This document shows, one piece after another, positions 709 to 27,571 of a DNA stretch of 27,652 bases. The DNA lies in IMG/VR virus record IMGVR_UViG_3300020043_005149, positions 1-27,652 of that record; one strand, written 5' to 3'. The notes under the pieces are model-generated. The model worked only from the letters and a program-made list of their open reading frames with translations, did not search any database and was not told where the DNA came from. A program made the translations under genes and the position numbers. Origin of the DNA: a virus. Its lineage: Duplodnaviria; Caudoviricetes. Within the stretch, counting starts at the first letter, position 1; each line of letters starts with the position of its first letter.

Positions 709-1850
709 ACTATTTATCGGTATGCAGTGGAATTGAAGCGGCAACAGTTGCTTGGCATCCATTAGGTTGGAATCCTGTTGGCTTTTCTGAAATTGATTCT
801 TTTCCGAGCCAAGTATTGAAACATCATTATCCAAATGTCCCAAACCATGGTGACATGACAAAATTTAAGGAGTGGCAAATTGAATCAAATGTCGATGTTT
901 TCGTTGGAGGAACACCATGCCAGTCTTTCTCAGTCGCAGGACTCAGAAAAGGATTGGATGACCCTCGTGGTAACCTCATGCTTACCTATCTTGCCATTGC
1001 TAAACAATATCGCCCCCGCTGGTTGGTCTGGGAGAATGTCCCTGGCGTTTTGTCCTCCGCTGACGGACGGGACTTTGGTAGCTTCCTCGGAGGGTTGGCA
1101 CTCTGCGGGTATGGGTTCGCATACAGGGTGCTTGACGCTCAATACTTCGGAGTGGCCCAAAGACGCAAACGTGTGTTCGTTGTCGGATATCTTGGAAACT
1201 GGCGACCTGCCGCAGCGGTTCTTTTTGAGCGAGAGAGCTTGCAAGGGAATTCTCCACCGAGCAGACAAAAGGGGGAAGGAGCTACCTCCCGCTCTTCTTC
1301 AAGCGTTGACGAAAGTGGCATCCAGCTCACTGTAGGCACTTTATGTGCTGACACACACCCTGGCAGTTACAGTGGACAAGATGCCTACACTGGCAGATTA
1401 GTGCCAACAGGTGTGCCAGATGTTATGGCTACTTTACTGTCCTCTACGGCAGGAATTTCTAGACCTGGCAATGCCGTTACAGAGCATGAAACATACATCC
1501 CAATGACAAGTCAGGTTTCCGCTTCTTCAGAGATGGAATCAATGGCATTTGAAAATAATCGTAGAGATGGTGTTCGTTTGTATGGGGACATCACAAACAC
1601 TTTGCAAGCATTTGCAGGGACGGGTGGCGGGAATACTCCAATGGTTCAAACAACAATGGCAGTTCGCAGATTGACTCCTGTTGAGTGCGAAAGACTTCAA
1701 GGGTTTCCAGACCATTACACCGATATCAAACCAAAGGGAAAGCAAACCCCTGATGGTCCAAGATACAAAGCATTAGGAAATAGCATGGCAGTTCCAGTTA
1801 TGAACTGGATCGGACAAAAAATACAAAAAGTTGAGGATTTAATTAAATGA
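705..1850 (+). CDS. DNA (cytosine-5)-methyltransferase
   Basis: Motif I variant VCSGIEA, motif IV GGTPCQSFS, VI ENVPG, VIII QRRKRVF, IX RRLTPVECERLQGFP and X YKALGNS. Confidence 0.95.
   Translation: MNYLSVCSGIEAATVAWHPLGWNPVGFSEIDSFPSQVLKHHYPNVPNHGDMTKFKEWQIESNVDVFVGGTPCQSFSVAGLRKGLDDPRGNLMLTYLAIAKQYRPRWLVWENVPGVLSSADGRDFGSFLGGLALCGYGFAYRVLDAQYFGVAQRRKRVFVVGYLGNWRPAAAVLFERESLQGNSPPSRQKGEGATSRSSSSVDESGIQLTVGTLCADTHPGSYSGQDAYTGRLVPTGVPDVMATLLSSTAGISRPGNAVTEHETYIPMTSQVSASSEMESMAFENNRRDGVRLYGDITNTLQAFAGTGGGNTPMVQTTMAVRRLTPVECERLQGFPDHYTDIKPKGKQTPDGPRYKALGNSMAVPVMNWIGQKIQKVEDLIK
880..1335 (+). CDS. Nested alternative-frame ORF (151 aa) resembling the beta polypeptide of split C5-MTases (M.EcoHK31I type)
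   Basis: TAAGGAG at 866-872 sits 7 nt before TTG 880. The ORF is open for 151 codons in the +1 frame and contains SLSDILETGDLPQRFFLSERACKGILHRADKRGKELP. Confidence 0.7.
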   Translation: MNQMSMFSLEEHHASLSQSQDSEKDWMTLVVTSCLPILPLLNNIAPAGWSGRMSLAFCPPLTDGTLVASSEGWHSAGMGSHTGCLTLNTSEWPKDANVCSLSDILETGDLPQRFFLSERACKGILHRADKRGKELPPALLQALTKVASSSL

Positions 1851-18407: not shown

Positions 18408-20465
18408 TTATGCCTTTAATTGCGCTTTTAACGCCTCAACTTCTGTTGATAATTCTTGAATTGCTTTAGTTAAAACAGCAATATAAGACGGGTAATGAAT
18501 GGTTTTAAAGCCAATTTCATCACCAACTTTCCAATCTGGCTCTTCATAAACTAATGAAGAACCACTTTCAATAATATTTTCAACTTCATCAGCAATAAAT
18601 CCATATCCTTTTTGGTGCTTTGGATCAGCTTTAAGCTTATATGAGACAGGACGCAATTGTTTAACAAAAGCCAAACCTAAATCACAATTAGTAATTTCTT
18701 CTTTTAAACGAATATCAGATGGGCTTGTTGTTGTTACTTCAATAGTAACTGTATTGCCTGTACCGGATGTTGCGACATAAGCACCAACAATACCTGTAGA
18801 TGCAGAACCAAGAATATTTAAACCAGATCCACCAGCATTGGCAGTTCCTGAATTGGTTGGAAAAATCCTAGCCCAAGATGAGGCGGCATAACCACCCATT
18901 GCATCTACTGTAGTCCACTGGCCATCATTTCTAAGAAATGTTGTTGTTGAACCAGTTGGTTGGGCAATTGTGTACGCACCCCAAGCAAATGTTCCTTGAT
19001 TAATTTGAAACGCTCTGCTTGCTCCAGAGGCAGCATTGCAAACAAGTCCAACACCAGAAGTAAGGGTTGAAGCAAAATAACCGCCAATATTATTGCTAGA
19101 ACCAACAACTCCAATTCCTGTGCTACCAGGCACACTTGATGGTGTTGTGCCATATCCAATAACACCAACATTAATAATGCTTCCACTAGAAGTAGCAGTA
19201 CCTAATACACCTGAACGCACATTTCCTAATGCTGCGCTTGTTGTTCCATCACCAAAAGTGGAATAGTCAATAAAGTAAAGACTGTCGTAAACAGGAATAG
19301 TTGTAGAAGTAGGGTTGTCACCCTTAAACACTGCATCACCATTAGTAGTAATGTCAGCCCTAAAAACGCCATTATTAAAGTAGACGTTACCTGTTGTTCT
19401 GCTTATGTAATAACCTGCCGTGCCATAAGTAGCAGGTGTTCCATATGTTGGCGGTGTTGAGCCATTCCAGTTATCAGATCTGATGTCTTGAAAAATAGAG
19501 GCGGCAGTAGGTGTTCCCCAAGCAGTTTGCCCAGAAGGAACACCATCTAATGTTGCTGCACTAGAGTTATAGCGACCAAAAGAATACCAAAGAACATCTC
19601 CAACAGAAACAGTAGGAGCAGTCAAAGACCATCCAGATGGGGCGGTTGGACCAGTTGTATTAGAAGGTGTTGCAGGAGCAGCAGAAGATTGACTTTGCGC
19701 CCTGTAAGCAGTTAACGCACTAATACCATTTCCGCCAGTTGATCCCGTTGCTCCATTAGATGAAAACGCATAAATTGGATAAGACACATTTGTCCAATCC
19801 AAAGTAGAAGTTACTGTATTGGCATTAACAACCAAAGGAATAGTAATAGCCCACAAAAAACTACCTGGCGTTGTGTTTGTTATTGGCTCTGTTGTCCACC
19901 CGCTAGGGGCCGTATAAGCCCCTGTAGCCCATGTATATGTTGATGTGGTGCTAGGACGGGTTGGTGGTGTAGAAGAGGCCGTCCAAATGTAAATAGATGG
20001 TGCAGCAGTGTTATATGCCGTAGTTGTGGTCACCACATCTAAATCAATTGAAGCACCTGTTTCTTGCAAATAAGTGGAATTAGGAGCAGTTGTTCCTACA
20101 AAGAAATTAATCTGCCGACCGCCATTTGTTTGATAAAACAAAAATTTAGTAGTGCCAAATCCACCTGCAGCTAAAAACCAAATGTAGTCAGCAGGGTTTG
20201 TTGACTCTACAGAACTGTTTGTATTTCTCAATCCATAGTACAAACGATTTGTTGGACTGTTACTAAAATTTAAAGTACCATCAAAACTATCAGCATATTT
20301 GACAGCAATATACTGATATAAATAAGCAATGATCACACCCGATGGACCACTAATCTGACCATTATTAGGATCGGCAGATAAGTTAGGTCCAAAGTTAGCC
20401 AATAAATAATTAATGGCCTCGGAAATCTCCGATTGGGATGGATCACTATTTAGTGCGAATGGCAT
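18408..20465 (-). CDS. Tail fibre/spike with C-terminal intramolecular chaperone (Peptidase_S74)
   Basis: S/T/G-rich body; SDIRLKEEI...LRPVSY...YGFIADEV...LTKAIQELSTEVEALK. Confidence 0.85.
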   Translation of the reverse strand: MPFALNSDPSQSEISEAINYLLANFGPNLSADPNNGQISGPSGVIIAYLYQYIAVKYADSFDGTLNFSNSPTNRLYYGLRNTNSSVESTNPADYIWFLAAGGFGTTKFLFYQTNGGRQINFFVGTTAPNSTYLQETGASIDLDVVTTTTAYNTAAPSIYIWTASSTPPTRPSTTSTYTWATGAYTAPSGWTTEPITNTTPGSFLWAITIPLVVNANTVTSTLDWTNVSYPIYAFSSNGATGSTGGNGISALTAYRAQSQSSAAPATPSNTTGPTAPSGWSLTAPTVSVGDVLWYSFGRYNSSAATLDGVPSGQTAWGTPTAASIFQDIRSDNWNGSTPPTYGTPATYGTAGYYISRTTGNVYFNNGVFRADITTNGDAVFKGDNPTSTTIPVYDSLYFIDYSTFGDGTTSAALGNVRSGVLGTATSSGSIINVGVIGYGTTPSSVPGSTGIGVVGSSNNIGGYFASTLTSGVGLVCNAASGASRAFQINQGTFAWGAYTIAQPTGSTTTFLRNDGQWTTVDAMGGYAASSWARIFPTNSGTANAGGSGLNILGSASTGIVGAYVATSGTGNTVTIEVTTTSPSDIRLKEEITNCDLGLAFVKQLRPVSYKLKADPKHQKGYGFIADEVENIIESGSSLVYEEPDWKVGDEIGFKTIHYPSYIAVLTKAIQELSTEVEALKAQLKA

Positions 20466-22084
20466 TAGAAAGCATCCTCAGTCACAGTTGCTTGCATATT
20501 TAATGCGCTCATTTTCCATGTGTTAGTGGCATCGTTTGAGCCAAATTTAACTGCCACAGTACGAAATGTATTTTGCTGAGTAGGAACCCAAGGTGTATCA
20601 GTATCAATTGTGGTTACACCTGTCTCACCATAAACAGAAGTTTGAGCGGTCGAATTAGCACCGCCCACAGTAATATTGATTGCACCCGTACCTGCTATTT
20701 CAGGCAAAACTCGGTGAATATAGACTTTTGAAGAATAAGGAACAGGACCATTGGCAGTCTGCAAAGCAATGTTAGTACGCTCAAACTCAGAATCAATGGC
20801 AGAACCTACAAATGAGTTACCAATGGCTGTCTCTACCAACCTAGAGTTATCAATACCTCCACGGGCATATACAACGGCTCTAGAAGACAAATTGTAGTAA
20901 TCAGGTGATGAGTCTACCCAACGAGGTCCTTCAGTGCCCATACAAGCGTTTTGGACATCTTTAGGAGCATTCCAAACCTGTAAGTCATATCTCCAAGACA
21001 ACATTTTGTTACACCATCCTGTGGAGGTCAAATCAGGATAGTAAATTTCAATCTGAGACTTTTGGGTGTTGTTAACCATAAAAATCCGATTTCCATAAAC
21101 AGGACTTAGGTTAGCAAAGAAGTAATTCTTAACTTTTTGGTTTCCCAAAGAAGTAAATTCAGATCCATTAAACACCCAAATATCACGAGCATCTACGCCA
21201 TAAACATTGGCATCAGTATTTGACCAACAATTATTGTTAATTAATCCTCGACCTTGGTTTAATAATCGAACACCAAATATTGGAGCGGTGGTATTTTGAT
21301 AAGAAATAGGTGAAAAAACTACTGTATCCCAATAAGAACACACATAAAAATTGCTTCCAAGGAAAAATCCATCAATCAATGGACCACGAACAGGCACTTC
21401 TTGCTCGTTAGCCACGTTAGAAAGAGTAGGTTCCCATGTAACTGGATAGCCTTGATTGGCAAAAGCTTGCGACCACCTGACAGTTGTTGGGTAGTTATAA
21501 GTCGTACCACCAATAACTTTGGTTAAATTTCCCGAAATAAGGATGTTTCCCACATTGGGGGAGCAGAAATTACGAACAAATGCTGCTCTTGTAGACGTTA
21601 CGCCAACATCATAATTCCATGATGCATCAGGAGTTACTGTAATTTCATTGCCTGTTGGCAAGAAATACATTGGATTTTGAATGGTGTCATTAATAAAAAA
21701 GACATTTCCAACCCAAGAAGTGGTGATATTTATATCTTCTGTATATCCGGCAATAAAGGCAGAAGGATTAGCCCCCACGCCTGGCGTTATGTTAGATATA
21801 CCCGTGGCAGTAATCATAAACCATTTACCTTGGTTAGATGAATTACGGGTTGCTACGATATACACCCAAGAAGTTTCTGATCTAAACCCACCTTCCATAA
21901 AGATGGGCATATCAGTAATGGTAGAAGCAATCTGAATCTCACCAAAGATCTTCTTAATGCAACGCACATCAGCTTCAATGTTCTTCCCGCTGTTGTACTC
22001 ATTTGGGCCTAAAGCGTTACTAGGCACATCAGGAGTAAAACTCATTGATGTAAATGGAGTACGGAGGCGGGAATAATCGCTCAT
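20465..22084 (-). CDS. Tail hub / packaged-DNA stabilization protein (P22 gp10-like)
   Basis: 539 aa and beta-propeller-like (TTVRWSQA, LSWRYDLQVW); lies upstream of the fibre and ejection genes. Confidence 0.7.
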   Translation of the reverse strand: MSDYSRLRTPFTSMSFTPDVPSNALGPNEYNSGKNIEADVRCIKKIFGEIQIASTITDMPIFMEGGFRSETSWVYIVATRNSSNQGKWFMITATGISNITPGVGANPSAFIAGYTEDINITTSWVGNVFFINDTIQNPMYFLPTGNEITVTPDASWNYDVGVTSTRAAFVRNFCSPNVGNILISGNLTKVIGGTTYNYPTTVRWSQAFANQGYPVTWEPTLSNVANEQEVPVRGPLIDGFFLGSNFYVCSYWDTVVFSPISYQNTTAPIFGVRLLNQGRGLINNNCWSNTDANVYGVDARDIWVFNGSEFTSLGNQKVKNYFFANLSPVYGNRIFMVNNTQKSQIEIYYPDLTSTGWCNKMLSWRYDLQVWNAPKDVQNACMGTEGPRWVDSSPDYYNLSSRAVVYARGGIDNSRLVETAIGNSFVGSAIDSEFERTNIALQTANGPVPYSSKVYIHRVLPEIAGTGAINITVGGANSTAQTSVYGETGVTTIDTDTPWVPTQQNTFRTVAVKFGSNDATNTWKMSALNMQATVTEDAF

Positions 22085-23136
22085 GTCACTTCTTCCATCT
22101 GCGAAAGATTGGTCAATAGACGGGTGTCTGTAGGGTTGAATTCTAAAGCTTTCTTACAGAATTCGATAGCCTGTTCTTTCAATCCAAGCCTCCAAGCTGC
22201 AATACTTGCATAATCGTATGGTTTTTCAGTCCAAACGCTTGGGTCCATTGTGTAAACGGCCTGTTTATCTTTAATATTTAAAGCTGAAAGAGCAGCACCA
22301 TAACTCTCAGGCCACATACTTAACCTGTAAGTTACAGTTGCCAATTCACACCATGGCTCACGGGTATCAGGGGCTTCAGCACAAGCTAATCTGTACCATT
22401 TCAAACCCTCGTGAATCAAACCCAATTCTTCATGGCATTTACCCAATAACCGCATGGCATAACACCGCTCATTAGGCCAAGTAGCTTCAGGCATGGCTAG
22501 ATATCGATTTAATGCCGTTATAGCGTCTTGCCAACGGGAATAGAAGGTTAGCTCCCGTGCATGGTAAAAAGCGTTTCTAGGGCAGTGTGGATCTTCTTTG
22601 ATAGCCAATTCAAGCAATGGCATATATTGGCCACGAGACTTGGTTGGGTCAGGATGGTGGCTGACCAAAAGCATATCTGTATGGGCATAGATTTCATTAG
22701 TTCTGCCATCAGGACGGGGATATTCATGGACAGGGTGATGCCAATGATATCCATGGCGGTGGTGGATTTTCTCGTAAAAAAACGATATTCCAGAACCCCA
22801 ATCAAATTTGTATCTCAAGCGAGTTGTTTCAGCAGTCCAAACCCGCTCAATCTCTTCCCGCCAACCTTCTTCCATAACTTCATCAAGATCTAATGAAATA
22901 CAGACATCAAAATCACGGGGAATCATTGCAAGGGCAGCATCCCTAGCTTTATCAAACCGCCACGGGCTGATGCAAATATCATGCACTTTTGCGCCACATT
23001 CCAATGCTAGTTTTACAGTGTCATCAGTAGAGCCTGTATCTGCAATCAGAATCAGGTCTGCATCTTTAGCTGAATCACAAAAACGCTGAACAAATTGCTC
23101 TTCGTTTTTGGATATGGCGTATACGGCTATTTTCAT
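22081..23136 (-). CDS. Family 2 glycosyltransferase with C-terminal TPR repeats
   Basis: AISKNEE, ADTGSTDDT, FDKARD, SLDLDE (DxD) and PVHEYP; TPR-like helices. Confidence 0.9.
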   Translation of the reverse strand: MKIAVYAISKNEEQFVQRFCDSAKDADLILIADTGSTDDTVKLALECGAKVHDICISPWRFDKARDAALAMIPRDFDVCISLDLDEVMEEGWREEIERVWTAETTRLRYKFDWGSGISFFYEKIHHRHGYHWHHPVHEYPRPDGRTNEIYAHTDMLLVSHHPDPTKSRGQYMPLLELAIKEDPHCPRNAFYHARELTFYSRWQDAITALNRYLAMPEATWPNERCYAMRLLGKCHEELGLIHEGLKWYRLACAEAPDTREPWCELATVTYRLSMWPESYGAALSALNIKDKQAVYTMDPSVWTEKPYDYASIAAWRLGLKEQAIEFCKKALEFNPTDTRLLTNLSQMEEVT

Positions 23137-23165
23137 TGCTATTCCTATATTATTAAATTGTTATT

Positions 23166-23954
23166 TCAACCCACGCCCATTTGTTTGCGTATTTTGGTTG
23201 CTGAAATAGCGTGTGTAGCATCATCAAAAGACTCCTGCTCAATCTTGTAGCCCACATCCCTGCCGTATGTAATATTCACCACATTAGGCACAAGCTGGAT
23301 CTCATACTGACCTTGGTATAGTGGATCAAGGTCACGTTTGATAAAGTCTTTAACCTGATTGGCAGCAAAAGGGTTTGAGCCGTTCCATCCTTGACAATCT
23401 CTGATCTGGATGACTACCTGACCAGTTTTGGCCAAGGCTCTTTCAAACAACTTGCGGTGGCCTTCATGCCAAGGTTGCCATCTGCCAAGCATTTGGACTG
23501 TCTCTTTCTGCCAATCAAAGACAGGGCGTTTCCGGTTGTCCAAAATGCCAGCAGCAATGAACTCACCCCACTTTTCAGCGTTTTGCTCTGTGATTCTGAA
23601 ATCGTACTGCTCTGGCGCAACAAACACCTTGTTGGTGTCTTCAAAACGGCCTTGGTTGATAGTGTCAACCCAAACAGTCCAATCTGCCTTGAAGTTGTTA
23701 CGCATTTCAACCAGAGGGGCAACAAAGTCGCAGATCACATAATCCACATCGTAACTGTCAGCCAAATCACGCATTCTTAGGCTTTGGCGAATACGGCCTT
23801 CATGGGAAAAGTCCCAATCGTTGTATTTCTTACGCACATCATCAGCATTCAGCCACATGACTGTTTTGCGCTCGGCTTGCAAGTGATCAAGAATGTGTTG
23901 TGCAAGGTAAGTTTTACCAGCACCAGGCAAGCCCATAATCAATATGCGTTTCAT
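23166..23954 (-). CDS. Adenylylsulfate-kinase-like P-loop domain fused to an HxGH nucleotidyltransferase domain
   Basis: GLPGAGKT, LNADDVR, DFSHEGRIRQ and FVAP; then GRWQPWHEGH...ISATKIR. Confidence 0.85.
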   Translation of the reverse strand: MKRILIMGLPGAGKTYLAQHILDHLQAERKTVMWLNADDVRKKYNDWDFSHEGRIRQSLRMRDLADSYDVDYVICDFVAPLVEMRNNFKADWTVWVDTINQGRFEDTNKVFVAPEQYDFRITEQNAEKWGEFIAAGILDNRKRPVFDWQKETVQMLGRWQPWHEGHRKLFERALAKTGQVVIQIRDCQGWNGSNPFAANQVKDFIKRDLDPLYQGQYEIQLVPNVVNITYGRDVGYKIEQESFDDATHAISATKIRKQMGVG

Positions 23955-24772
23955 CCTTTAACCTTATAAAGTTGTTTCATTGCAAACTCTAGTGCGGGTG
24001 TGCGCCAGAACTCTTTACCAGAATACTTTTCCCAAACTGATTTAGGCAAGATAGAGGGACGTTCTTGCCATGTAACTTCTTTTCTGACTGTGTGCAGACT
24101 TTTCATGTTCAAGGCTTTGTCATACACCTCGTTGTCATACTCAACATTCTTGTAATCGTGTTCGTAATAAGGCTTGCCAATAAACCCATAAATCTCACGC
24201 ATAACGCTCTCAGGCTTTTTGCACAAAGATTCATACTCAACCAACATAATCATGTCAGGGTTTAACAGTAAGCCTTCTTCTAAGAAGTAGTAGGGCTTGA
24301 CCACCTGACCCTCTTTTTTAACATCCATCAAAGCATCGCATCTTGTGGTGACTGTTTGCCTAGCTTCATCATCCGTCAGGCTTGCACCATACAAAGAGTT
24401 TTTGGAAGCAATGCGCTCAAAGCTATCAAGAATCCAAGGCAAATCACGCACACAACAGACAATCTTAGTCTGTGGGTAAAGTTCCTTGAGCAAGGATGTT
24501 TTGGCTGTCCAACCCCTGCTTGTATCAAATACAGTATTGGGACTGACAGATTCATAGTAGGCATTGAACAAAGAGCGTAGGATGCTTTTGCGTCTGTCTT
24601 CATCTATCAAGTGGTTACTCTCGCTACCTGTAATGACATTGATTGTTGATGCAACCAACCCCAATACTGGCGAGGAAATATCTGCATAGAATTCTGGATT
24701 CTGACGCAAGATAGCCGAGAGCAGGGTTGAGCCTGACCTTGGCAAACCAGAGATGAAGAAAAACTCTTTCAT
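23951..24772 (-). CDS. PAPS-dependent sulfotransferase
   Basis: 5'-PSB loop FISGLPRSGSTLL, 3'-PB motif VRDLPWILDS and VEYESLCKKP. ATG 24772 is preferred over 24793. Confidence 0.9.
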   Translation of the reverse strand: MKEFFFISGLPRSGSTLLSAILRQNPEFYADISSPVLGLVASTINVITGSESNHLIDEDRRKSILRSLFNAYYESVSPNTVFDTSRGWTAKTSLLKELYPQTKIVCCVRDLPWILDSFERIASKNSLYGASLTDDEARQTVTTRCDALMDVKKEGQVVKPYYFLEEGLLLNPDMIMLVEYESLCKKPESVMREIYGFIGKPYYEHDYKNVEYDNEVYDKALNMKSLHTVRKEVTWQERPSILPKSVWEKYSGKEFWRTPALEFAMKQLYKVKG

Positions 24773-24774
24773 TC

Positions 24775-25200
24775 TTAAGCCTGTGGAATCCAATTGACTG
24801 TGGCTTCATCCCATTGATAACGCACGTTGCCGCCATTCATAATGGCATCTACAGGTCTTGGTACAGGCGCACTCCAAGTCATTGTGTCTGGGTAACCAAT
24901 CCAAGATGGGTAAGGTCTACGGGCCAAATGTTCAGCGGCTTTAGCGGCGTTGTATTCTTCTTCAGTCAAAACCTGCAACACGCCCGCAATAGTAGTGTCG
25001 GCATCATCATCACAAGTGCCATAGTATTTAGGCGCACGAAGGTATGTGCCTGTTGAGTCTGTGCTAACAGGCCATGTTGAACTGTCATGCCATAAATGAG
25101 CCCAGCCTTTAATTGCTGGCATTGATGGGCCTGTGCGTTGTGGTTCAACTGTGCAAGGTATTTTTGTAACTGCGTCAACTTCGGTAATGCAAATGTACAT
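24775..25200 (-). CDS. Tail-associated hypothetical protein
   Basis: TAAGGAG SD; C-terminal PYPSW...TW.APVP.P...Y.WDE...W motif. Confidence 0.7.
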   Translation of the reverse strand: MYICITEVDAVTKIPCTVEPQRTGPSMPAIKGWAHLWHDSSTWPVSTDSTGTYLRAPKYYGTCDDDADTTIAGVLQVLTEEEYNAAKAAEHLARRPYPSWIGYPDTMTWSAPVPRPVDAIMNGGNVRYQWDEATVNWIPQA

Positions 25201-25220
25201 TGTGGTGCTCCTTATAAAAT

Positions 25221-25970
25221 TTAAACTGCTACTCTGCGAACGGCGCGAACATAACGATAAGAAGATTGTATTTTATTGGCATAAGTTTGTTGTCCTGTTG
25301 AAAATGATTGCATGGAGCCCGTGTAAGGAGCGCCAATTCCTTGCGTACTTGACCAATAAAATGCGCTTGAAAATGATTCTGAATTTCCTGTTTGGAAAAT
25401 GGCCGCAGATGTTTGGGCGGGTGTTCCGGATGTGTAACTACTAGCCCTTGCTGGAACAGCATTAGCATTTATTCCTGACGCTGTAGAATTACCAGCAGTT
25501 GTTGGTTTTAAATTGTAATAACAAACTTCTAATTCATTTAAAGCTGGCATATACCAATCTGTGAAACCGCCCACATTAACCGCTTCACAAAATTGTGCCG
25601 CCGGATATAAGGCACTATTCATTGTTGCACTATTTGCAGGGCCGTTAATTACAGAAGTTGGATCGCCTGTAGTACCCGTTGTTTTCCATTGAACCGGTGT
25701 TGTTTGACCAGAAGAACGAGGCGCAATCACCAAGTTGTAATCAGCCACACTGTTTCCTGCCGTTGAAATTTGTCCAGCATAATAGCCGCCTTGGTAGGCT
25801 TGACCAATCACTAAGGGAGCAGAATTTCCCGCAGTAGGCCACAGACCTTGCTTCTTAAACTGCATGGCTTGGTCAAGTGTCCATACACCTTTTGCCGTGC
25901 TTGTGTCATACGGCCCAGATGGAAGTGGTGGACTCTTTGTGATAAACCCGCCTGGATATTTTTGGCTCAT
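25221..25970 (-). CDS. DUF1566/Lcl (C-type-lectin-fold) virion protein, paralog 3
   Basis: GFTDWYMPALNEL, YWSSTQ and VRAVRR. Confidence 0.85.
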   Translation of the reverse strand: MSQKYPGGFITKSPPLPSGPYDTSTAKGVWTLDQAMQFKKQGLWPTAGNSAPLVIGQAYQGGYYAGQISTAGNSVADYNLVIAPRSSGQTTPVQWKTTGTTGDPTSVINGPANSATMNSALYPAAQFCEAVNVGGFTDWYMPALNELEVCYYNLKPTTAGNSTASGINANAVPARASSYTSGTPAQTSAAIFQTGNSESFSSAFYWSSTQGIGAPYTGSMQSFSTGQQTYANKIQSSYRYVRAVRRVAV

Positions 25971-25979
25971 GGTTGTTCC

Positions 25980-26654
25980 TTAGACAGGGACTCTGCGGAT
26001 AGCACGAACACGAAGAGAATAGGTTTTACCTGTATCATTTTGAAAACCATTAGAAAATGTTTGATACTCAGCGGCAAAAGGTTTTGCACCGCCAACCTGA
26101 GTGCTAGACCAATATTGAGGCGTTGAAAATGCTTCAGAACCTCCAGTTTGAAAAATAGTTACAGAGGTTTGAACAGGATCTCCCGATGTGTAATTACTTG
26201 CTCTTGCAGGTACAGCGTTGGGGTTTATTCCAGAAGATGTGTTGTTTGCACCTGTTGTTGGCTTCAAGTTGTAATAGCAAACTTCTAATTCGTTTTTAGC
26301 TGGCATATACCAATCGCTAAATCCACCAACAGTTAAATTGTCGCAAAATTGCCCACAAGGGTGTGCTGCCGCACCAGCCGCAATCATTGCTGCCGTGTTT
26401 GCTGGGCCATTAATAACTGAATCTGTTCCAGTTGTTAAATCAGAGGAAGTTTTCCATGAATTTTGAGTTTGACCAGATGACAGAGGTGCAACAACTAAAT
26501 AATGCGTTGCAACACTGCTTACACCAATTTGACCAGCGTAATACCCGCCACCATAAGCCTGACCAATAGTCGTTGGAGGAGGGCTAGGCCAAGTGCCAGC
26601 CGCTATAGCTTGCATCTGAGCCTGTAAAGTAAAAACACCTGAGTAACTTGGCAT
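25980..26654 (-). CDS. DUF1566/Lcl virion protein, paralog 2
   Basis: GFSDWYMPAKNEL, YWSSTQ and VRAIRR. Confidence 0.85.
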   Translation of the reverse strand: MPSYSGVFTLQAQMQAIAAGTWPSPPPTTIGQAYGGGYYAGQIGVSSVATHYLVVAPLSSGQTQNSWKTSSDLTTGTDSVINGPANTAAMIAAGAAAHPCGQFCDNLTVGGFSDWYMPAKNELEVCYYNLKPTTGANNTSSGINPNAVPARASNYTSGDPVQTSVTIFQTGGSEAFSTPQYWSSTQVGGAKPFAAEYQTFSNGFQNDTGKTYSLRVRAIRRVPV

Positions 26655-26662
26655 ATATTTCC

Positions 26663-27571
26663 TTAGACTGCTACTCTGCGAACTGCTCGGACACGATAGG
26701 AACTTACTTTAAAATAGGCATACTGTTGGCCGTTAATAAAGTACTGCCTCCATGCAGTCGTTGCAGAATTTTCTGTACTAGACCAGTAAGGGGGAGAGGT
26801 CGCAAAGTCTTCTGCACCTGTGCTTTGAAAATCAGTAGCAGAAGTTTGTGCTGGTGTTCCAGCTGTGTAGTTAGATGCTCTTGCAGGGACTGCATTTGCA
26901 TTTATGCCAGATGATGTACTGTTGCTTGCTGTTGTAGGTTTTAAGTTGTAGTAACACACTTCTAACTCGTTCTTGGCTGGCATGTACCAGTCTGTAAACC
27001 CACCAATAGTTAAGCCTTCACAGAATTGCGCTGCGGGGTGGGTTACATCATTCATCGCTGCGCTGTTAGCTGGCCCGTCAATCACTGATGAAGTGCCAGC
27101 AGTTGATGTGTTTACTATTTTCCATTGCAACGTGCTTTGAGCAGATGCTACAGGGCCAACAACTAAATTGTAGTCAGCTACGCTGTTACCCGCAGTAGAG
27201 ATTTGGCCAGCAAAGAATCCACCGCCAAAAGCCCCGCCAATAGCAGGCAATGTTGTTACAGAGTTACTTGCCGCACTTAAAGCACTAGGCCCATAACTGT
27301 TTGTCGCAAAAACTTTAAATGTGTAAGCTGTGCCGCCAGATAAGCCGCTAACAGTAACGGGGGAAGATGCCGCAGTGCCTGTAAACCCGCCTGGACTTGA
27401 AACTGCTGTGTATGACGTAATTGCAGAACCACCAATGTCAGAGGGCGCAGTAAAAGCTACAGATGCGGAACTTGCACCTGATAACGTAGCCGTACCAATG
27501 GTAGGCGCATTAGGGTTCTTTAGCGGGTTAAAAAATGCGGAGATAAACCCAGCAGCGTAACGCATGGACAT
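26663..27571 (-). CDS. Fibronectin type III + DUF1566/Lcl virion protein, paralog 1
   Basis: FN3 segment APTIGTAT...VAFTAP..IGGSAITSY...VSGL..GTAYTFKVFATN; then DWYMPAKNEL, YWSSTE and VRAVRR. Confidence 0.87.
   Translation of the reverse strand: MSMRYAAGFISAFFNPLKNPNAPTIGTATLSGASSASVAFTAPSDIGGSAITSYTAVSSPGGFTGTAASSPVTVSGLSGGTAYTFKVFATNSYGPSALSAASNSVTTLPAIGGAFGGGFFAGQISTAGNSVADYNLVVGPVASAQSTLQWKIVNTSTAGTSSVIDGPANSAAMNDVTHPAAQFCEGLTIGGFTDWYMPAKNELEVCYYNLKPTTASNSTSSGINANAVPARASNYTAGTPAQTSATDFQSTGAEDFATSPPYWSSTENSATTAWRQYFINGQQYAYFKVSSYRVRAVRRVAV

Follow-up and report, generated by a model that had tools for sequence, protein, structure and literature searches.

A 262-residue phage kinase-nucleotidyltransferase fusion as a candidate PAPS synthase with a putative minimal ATP sulfurylase domain

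We consider it quite probable that a 262-residue phage fusion protein, consisting of an APS kinase-like domain followed by a small nucleotidyltransferase domain, makes PAPS as a bifunctional synthase whose ATP sulfurylase is of a minimal, undescribed kind, and that the same minimal domain is also a candidate for the Sat missing from SAR11. With moderate confidence, we further propose that this domain of 115-129 residues, one third as large as Sat, arose independently from NMNAT/PPAT stock as a third class of ATP sulfurylase, that it is the missing Sat of SAR11, where it completes the route from sulfite through APS to sulfate and ATP, that it has taken the place of sat in at least one further alphaproteobacterial operon, and that its fusion to a lidless kinase gives a 262-residue PAPS synthase for particle sulfation by thousands of aquatic phages. 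An earlier, sequence-only reading of this DNA had suggested a minimal bifunctional PAPS synthase, and this predicted activity is still the best-supported reading. Its support now comes from a sulfotransferase gene overlapping the fusion gene and from the swap of sat for the domain in bacterial operons, neither of which that reading had seen.

The window, meaning the whole 27,652-nucleotide stretch that was analysed, is a linear virus record that is ~58% complete and also encodes a lysozyme, Sak, a C5 methylase and tail genes. The features of interest are as follows.

23166..23954, minus strand: fusion gene, 262 aa, lid-trimmed APS kinase plus minimal HxGH nucleotidyltransferase; candidate mini PAPS synthase
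23535..23954, minus strand: kinase domain, approximately residues 1-140, with profile and fold matches to APS kinases
23169..23519, minus strand: nucleotidyltransferase domain (C-domain), approximately residues 146-262; candidate minimal ATP sulfurylase, from its motifs, its model and the sat slot swap
23951-24769, minus strand: sulfotransferase, 272 aa from ATG (Pfam Sulfotransfer_3, E 5.9e-18); likely PAPS consumer
22081..23136, minus strand: GT2-TPR glycosyltransferase, downstream of the fusion and in the same operon here (GmaR match, E 8e-6)
24775..27571, minus strand: a gene of 141 aa plus three of the Lcl_C (DUF1566) type, of which one includes an FN3 domain, upstream of the sulfotransferase
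18408..22084, minus strand: genes for a virion structural protein (539 aa) and for a tail fibre carrying an S74 chaperone (685 aa)

In addition, a 151-aa ORF with a plausible protein start (880-1335, plus strand) lies in another frame within the C5 DNA methylase gene (705-1850).

The fusion ORF is intact, and every motif listed in the sequence-only reading was confirmed (GLPGAGKT at residue 8, ADDVR at 37, DFSHEGR at 48, GRWQPWHEGH at 157 and ISATKIR at 250). In a profile search, PHROG_10255 matched residues 1-260 (E 2.5e-50), and both domains occurred together in 260 of 270 viral loci. A single 36-kb contig from another run spanned positions 21800-25250 unbroken, with 187 differences. Comparison with 76 close loci gave dN/dS values of ~0.04 for the kinase and ~0.014 for the C-domain; although rough, given a pS of 0.57-0.67, they point to strong purifying selection on both. 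These results indicate that the fusion is real, being neither a chance ORF nor a misassembly.

The sulfotransferase gene immediately upstream had been overlooked in the earlier reading. Its stop codon and the start of the fusion share four bases (ATGA), and the ORF has an alternative start at TTG 24793. In the PDB, its product was matched weakly by the CurM sulfotransferase and by tyrosylprotein sulfotransferases (E 0.002-0.01). Read along the coding strand, three Lcl_C genes come first, followed by the 141-aa gene, sulfotransferase, fusion, GT2-TPR, virion structural gene and tail fibre, an order that places the sulfotransferase-fusion cassette within a run of structural genes. Parts of the Lcl_C tandem (25221-27571, minus strand) were skipped or replaced in contigs from other runs, which suggests that this variable stretch is a receptor-binding cassette.

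The family is very common: all 8000 of 8000 scored candidates passed E<=0.001, and motif-pattern matches were found in an estimated ~4400 stored viral stretches and ~1600 GTDB stretches. Matches were present in 15 GenBank phage records, 12 of them covering >=80% of the fusion, and PHROG_10255, named 'kinase', includes Xylella phages Sano and Salvo and Stenotrophomonas phage DLP6. Existing annotations of family members read kinase, hypothetical, adenylylsulfate kinase or cysC. The two halves can also be encoded by separate neighbouring genes, with the kinase either first (L109 and many SAR11) or second (L110).

Flanks of 1.5 kb on either side were available for 63 of 80 close loci; within that distance, 45 had the sulfotransferase and 43 had the 141-aa and Lcl_C genes. 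The viral loci formed 66 clusters at 80% identity, 48 of which had 3 kb on both sides; of these, 11 had a sulfotransferase within 300 bases, 20 had one within 3 kb and 22 within 6 kb, and none was seen within 6 kb in the remaining 26. These counts are partly circular and may miss divergent enzymes, as the search seeds were 23 hand-picked neighbours with Pfam matches, some of them weak (E up to 0.01). In the 37 clusters with full flanks, sulfotransferases were concentrated near the fusion (17/37 at 0-3 kb vs 4/37 at 3-6 kb). The neighbouring sulfotransferases span five Pfam families. With the same seeds, a sulfotransferase was found within 3 kb in 8 of 53 GTDB loci. The sequence-only reading had offered, as an alternative, that the C-domain activates a sugar or phosphonate for the adjacent GT2. 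This alternative found no support, as the window's GT2 was near the fusion in 0/63 close loci, against 45/63 for the sulfotransferase, and in only 3/270 viral loci; the GT2 was accordingly rejected as a functional partner.

Several other neighbourhoods were noted. In Xylella phage Sano and relatives (L081:5963-7732), three genes lie side by side, far from the structural genes: one divergent and Sulfotransfer_4-like (E 4e-4), one for NADAR, and the fusion; these cultured phages are ones in which the sulfate acceptor could be found. In Ralstonia phage phiRSL1 (L084:5995-12232), a kinase-only relative leads a cluster containing a TET-associated glycosyltransferase (PF20691) with two paralogs, nucleotidyltransferases and a Sulfotransfer_2 gene, possibly for sulfated sugar modification of DNA bases. 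A small DUF2061-type gene adjoins the fusion in unrelated phages and bacteria (L093:6780-7016, L151:6755-7000, L192, L193, L245), and PAPS-independent arylsulfotransferase (ASST) genes follow it in two alphaproteobacteria (L218:7835-9250, L231:7880-9292).

The kinase half matched APS kinases best. With a profile built from an alignment of 40 diverse family members, the best 24 PDB matches were all APS kinases or APS-kinase domains. In the fold search, five APS kinases ranked on top (Z 14.1-16.4; next family Z 12.9), with the Mycobacterium tuberculosis (Mtb) enzyme 4rfv as the best match (Z 16.4, rmsd 2.0, 128 residues aligned). A NadR-, COASY- or FAD-synthetase-like combination of kinase and adenylyltransferase was considered and set aside: nicotinamide riboside kinase (Z 9.8) and dephospho-CoA kinase (Z 10.0-10.2) ranked far below APS kinases. 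Residues G8, G13, K14, D38, R41, F49, R54, R60, F77, P80 and T107 were invariant (40/40). According to the available part of PMC4373884, Mtb CysC binds APS through Asp480, Arg483, Phe492, Arg497 and Phe576. D38, R41, F49 and R54 of the fusion have the spacing of the first four, and this APS-binding pattern was found in 339 of 343 homologous kinase domains. F104 may correspond to Phe576, as judged by counting back from the conserved Pro.

The absence of the usual lid, pointed out in the sequence-only reading, extends to its homologues: the RDPKG motif was found neither in the fusion nor in any of 343 homologous kinase domains. The Mtb lid stretch carries Arg559 and Lys562, and the same source, in the part available, calls lid closure essential (PMC4373884). 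This stretch is missing from the fusion kinase, and LNAD replaces the LDGD motif at residues 35-38, with Asn at the position of Asp478. R103 and F104 may substitute for the missing lid residues. The domain scored above the cut-off for PF01583 (36.9 vs 21.1) and below that of the TIGR00455 equivalog model (25.1 vs 138.7 bits). The N-terminal half is predicted to work like an APS kinase, as a trimmed variant below the equivalog cut-off. One subgroup (L087, L092, L099, L104, L107) carries an insertion of 16-23 residues after the P-loop helix of the kinase.

The C-domain is 109-117 aa long across the family and ~115 aa in the window. When modelled alone, it gave a pLDDT of 90.4, and a full-length fold from a shallow alignment was poor in the C-half (pLDDT 61.5). 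Its motifs are GRxQPxHxGH, an additional Arg (R185), GR(D/G)VGY and ISATxxR, and an NPF is also present. HxGH and SxTxxR were invariant in the alignment, as was GR; among 319 C-domains, R185 was kept in 311, ISAT in 316, and GRDV and GRGV occurred in 271 and 42, respectively. In sequence and fold, the C-domain is closer to NMNAT/PPAT than to Sat; the earlier reading had remarked on the nearness of GRWQPWHEGH to the NMNAT/cytidylyltransferase motif. The best sequence matches were NMNATs (E 1.6e-9), with PPATs also matched, and no ATP sulfurylase was found among the 35 PDB sequence matches. A Foldseek search with the C-domain returned nothing at E<=0.001. In the fold comparison with Sat, NMNAT, TagD and others, PPAT ranked highest (Z 10.1), followed by NMNAT (Z 9.8), Thermus thermophilus Sat (1v47; Z 8.7, rmsd 3.1, 113 of 116 residues aligned) and TagD (2b7l; Z 7.6, 89 aligned), with only Z 6.3 for the sulfurylase of PAPSS1. 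These fold scores do not discriminate between substrates.

Sat hallmarks, as given in the available part of PMC3779200, are QxRN (QxRNxxHxxH), the GxxKxxD loop, GRD and SxTxxR. The C-domain has altered counterparts of the GRD and SGTxxR motifs, namely GR(D/G)VGY and ISATxxR, and lacks the sulfate-binding QxRN and GxxKxxD, with GRxQPxHxGH in place of the former. A profile-profile comparison with a Sat gave a probability of 4.8%. We found no match to PF01747 (Sat) among the window's proteins or the contig and none to TIGR02039 (CysD) in the contig; the C-domain is of the HxGH type and not the PP-loop type. NMNAT/PPAT family models reached at best 30.6 bits against a cut-off of 127, PF01467 20.7 against 21 and TIGR00125 18.7 against 27.7. 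Over the aligned range (model 6-115 vs MJ0541 1-134), the C-domain is ~25 residues shorter than MJ0541, the gap falling at MJ0541 76-108, which we take to be the nicotinamide (NMN) pocket. By the features tested, the C-domain belongs to none of Sat, NMNAT and TagD, and NMNAT/PPAT is its likely ancestral stock. The idea of a shrunken Sat or PAPSS was rejected on account of the missing QxRN, the low profile probability and the greater closeness to NMNAT/PPAT. For that last reason, and because the halves are also found unfused, as neighbouring genes with either one first, the kinase-then-sulfurylase order cited in the earlier reading is a weak argument for PAPS synthase, and the likeness to PAPSS is better explained by convergence.

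The strongest evidence in the analysis came from aprMBA operons of alphaproteobacteria, in which sat has been replaced in place by the unrelated-looking domain gene. In the order containing L198 (SAR116 cluster; 71 genomes, 8 regions read), we detected aprA in 7 genomes, the domain in 9 and Sat in 6. The locus is laid out as LOG-[slot]-aprM-aprB-aprA...cysC, and sat-aprMBA is a known operon of A. vinosum (PMC3779200, in the part available). G306 and G286 carry LOG, a 390-aa Sat, aprM, aprB, aprA, a phosphodiesterase-like gene and a 117-119-aa gene; cysC comes next in G306, and the G286 contig ends before that point. G302, G298 and G290 have the identical gene order with a 129-aa domain homolog at the Sat position. 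Between G306 and G302, identity was 71% for LOG, 84% for AprM, 97% for AprA and 77% for CysC, and Sat, LOG and CysC were each confirmed by scores above the NCBIfam cut-offs. The 129-aa slot protein is 56-57% identical to the window's C-domain and shares all of its motifs; across SAR11 and this order, sat-slot homologs were 53-58% identical to it. AprA is identical in G298 and G290, and the swap was therefore probably a single event. Among the other regions, G310 shows LOG, domain and aprM only, on a 2.3-kb contig, G346 has sat-aprMBA with different flanks, and G316 has kinase and domain beside a TPR gene, with aprA not found there.

Among 50 other alphaproteobacteria with the fusion, CysD exceeded its cut-off in 14 and Sat in 4. 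The CysD frequency compares with 50/81 in the order of G003 (p 3e-4), a control unmatched for taxon and completeness, and CysD depletion in fusion-bearing alphaproteobacteria is only suggestive. An aprA search of the genomes of L198, L212, L193 and L271 gave no match; as this search matched nowhere, it shows little.

The domain was similarly linked to aprA in SAR11. According to the available part of PMC5069961, P. ubique/Pelagibacter has AprBA, sat and cysDN are reported absent, and cysC and aprA occur in the same five of seven strains (Table 3). Across 151 genomes sampled from the family to which G001 belongs (L270 comes from this complete Pelagibacter genome), we detected the domain in 107, aprA in 99, Sat in 6, CysD in 7 and NadD in 142; the mini-kinase was present in 80, all among the 107 domain carriers. 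Domain and aprA occurred together in 95 genomes, the domain only in 12, aprA only in 4 and neither in 40 (p 3e-21, uncorrected for kinship). Two of the sampled genomes, G127 and G050, are flagged as unpublished, and none of the conclusions depends on either; without G127, the domain was present in 94 of 98 aprA carriers. It was found in 0/7 CysD genomes and in 5/6 Sat-bearing genomes. This coexistence, together with that in G290, which carries Sat elsewhere in its genome, and with the common coexistence with CysD or Sat in other alphaproteobacteria, means that exclusion is not strict.

In 24 of the 95 double-positive genomes, the domain gene preceded aprA on the same strand by 1.4-4 kb (1415-1444 bases in 20), and 19 of these 24 lacked a kinase match. 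In the other 71, it was distant from aprA or on another contig. Five of eight SAR11 regions read had a stand-alone 126-aa domain gene immediately followed by an aprM-like gene (so named from its position, following PMC2211403), aprB, aprA, a 116-aa gene and the sulfite exporter gene TauE; in the other three, one to three genes intervened between the domain and the aprM-like gene. Of 65 metagenome loci whose flanks were long enough, all of them close to the query, 38 had aprM directly after the domain. SAR11 domain-apr operons fell in one or two subclades of the tree, which indicates few independent events. The 116-aa gene between aprA and TauE is conserved in G072 (L352:7327-8847) and other SAR11 aprMBA loci and has no Pfam or NCBIfam match. 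In several SAR11 genomes, among them G072 (L352:415-3691), the domain-aprMBA block comes after genes for cystathionine beta-lyase-like, MFS and CADD-family (TIGR04305) proteins.

The PAPS synthase reading is based on the slot swap, the co-occurrence in SAR11, the APS-binding residues of the kinase, the coupling to sulfotransferases, and the Sat-like GRD, SxTxxR and fold. Counterpoints include the missing kinase lid, the missing QxRN and GxxKxxD, a GRD with its D in only 271/319 domains, and PPAT and NMNAT folds that score above Sat. HxGH and SxTxxR bind NTP phosphates in the nucleotidyltransferase superfamily. Under the proposed mechanism, the C-domain would hold ATP through HxGH and SATxxR and join sulfate to it, yielding APS and PPi; conservation points to R158, Q160 and R185 as the residues that might hold sulfate instead of the Sat QxRN loop. 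The N-domain would then phosphorylate APS to PAPS. Sulfurylation of ATP is an unfavourable reaction that APS kinase and pyrophosphatase pull along. In the phage, the fused kinase would trap APS as PAPS and pull the reaction forward. The overlapping sulfotransferase would spend the PAPS, possibly on virion proteins or their sugars, acceptors suggested by the position of the cassette among structural genes and by the GmaR-like GT2; the Lcl_C and 141-aa gene products might be such acceptors. The stand-alone domain of SAR11-type cells would act downstream of AprBA in the reverse direction (APS + PPi -> ATP + sulfate), like Sat in sulfur oxidizers.

We weighed three other explanations against this proposal. 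The C-domain might handle APS without being a reversible ATP sulfurylase, for example by only discharging it with phosphate or water or by running only from APS to ATP, and the phage kinase would then use APS from host CysDN or Sat. The strongest genomic link is indeed to AprBA, where flux would consume APS; no kinase accompanies 19 of the 24 copies adjacent to aprA, the QxRN loop that binds sulfate in Sat is absent, and in phiRSL1 a kinase-only relative serves a sulfotransferase cluster. However, an enzyme converting APS and PPi to ATP and sulfate is thermodynamically reversible, and fusion to a kinase would draw it forward; the NTP-phosphate motifs HxGH and SxTxxR are invariant, and an APS destroyer fused to an APS kinase beside a sulfotransferase would make little sense. 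We regard this explanation as unlikely.

It also seems quite improbable that the C-domain is NMNAT/NadM-, PPAT- or TagD-like with a non-sulfur substrate (NMN, phosphopantetheine, or a sugar or polyol phosphate for the GT2) and is merely fused to an APS-kinase-like domain. Such an identity would fit the NMNAT sequence matches, the PPAT and NMNAT folds, the ESM Atlas neighbours auto-named cytidyltransferase (0.95) and the NADAR gene adjoining the fusion in Sano-like phages. Against this, every NMNAT/PPAT model scored far under its cut-off, the substrate-side region, where we presume the nicotinamide pocket to lie, is shortened, NadD is already present in 100 of the 107 SAR11 domain carriers, the GT2 is absent near the fusion in close loci, and a non-sulfur substrate leaves the sat slot swap unexplained. 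A different purpose for the same activities, namely host assimilatory sulfate reduction with the gene as a 'cysC auxiliary metabolic gene' rather than a supply for the phage sulfotransferase, appears very improbable. Phage cysC has been read as an assimilation gene (PMC10914622; bioRxiv 2021.01.05.425418; both as partly available), and 26/48 viral clusters had no sulfotransferase within 6 kb. The fusion is nevertheless tied to a sulfotransferase by a 4-base overlap within a structural gene run, and no cysH reductase was found among the 23 window proteins, from a ~58% complete contig, or the 93 neighbours scanned.

Two types of ATP sulfurylase, Sat and CysDN, are textbook knowledge. The family described here is real, abundant, and annotated but unexplained; PAPS synthase is a known function, and this form of the enzyme is likely undescribed. 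Our literature search, which had most subscription journals outside its scope, found no paper assigning a function to the C-domain, and the annotation libraries searched give it none either. In the available parts of the two papers on phage cysC as an assimilation gene (PMC10914622; bioRxiv 2021.01.05.425418), the fused domain is unmentioned, and their supplements may include the family. If the proposal is true, a third, tiny ATP sulfurylase would close a gap in the fate of Pelagibacter APS and, running backwards, would let one of the most abundant groups in the ocean gain ATP from sulfite. The minimal domain would have escaped pathway surveys based on sat and cysD. Likewise, many phage 'cysC' genes would become self-contained PAPS supplies for phage sulfotransferases and not assimilation helpers, and a very small PAPS-making enzyme would be usable for in vitro sulfation.

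Among known systems, human PAPSS1 (PDB 1x6v, 630 aa) and the Aquifex Sat-APS kinase (2gks) combine an APS kinase and an HxxH-superfamily adenylyltransferase in one chain, as in the fusion. PAPSS1 also has the kinase first, and its kinase fold matched with Z 14.2 (rmsd 2.9, 141 aligned). However, bifunctional PAPS synthases are 546-630 aa long, compared with 262 aa for the fusion, which lacks their PUA-like domain and QxRN. CysD-type enzymes are PP-loop subunits working with the CysN GTPase, unlike the HxGH C-domain. Archaeal-type NMNAT/NadM (MJ0541, 1f9a; Francisella, 2qjt) and PPAT/CoaD share GRxQPxHxGH and NPF with the C-domain, whereas after strand 2 the C-domain has Arg where NMNAT has G-S, and its neighbours are sulfur genes and not NAD genes. 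The fusion kinase, at ~135 aa, lacks the RDPKG lid stretch and LDGD of CysC (TIGR00455, PF01583; Mtb 4rfv) but shares its P-loop, its APS-binding Asp/Arg/Phe/Arg and F-x-x-P. Sat (PF01747, TIGR00339) is a three-domain protein of 350-390 aa, compared with ~115-129 aa for the minimal domain, and its motif spacing is 88 and 62 residues instead of 68 and 20; nevertheless, the two share the nucleotidyltransferase fold, the HxxH/GRD/SxTxxR order and the slot preceding aprMBA.
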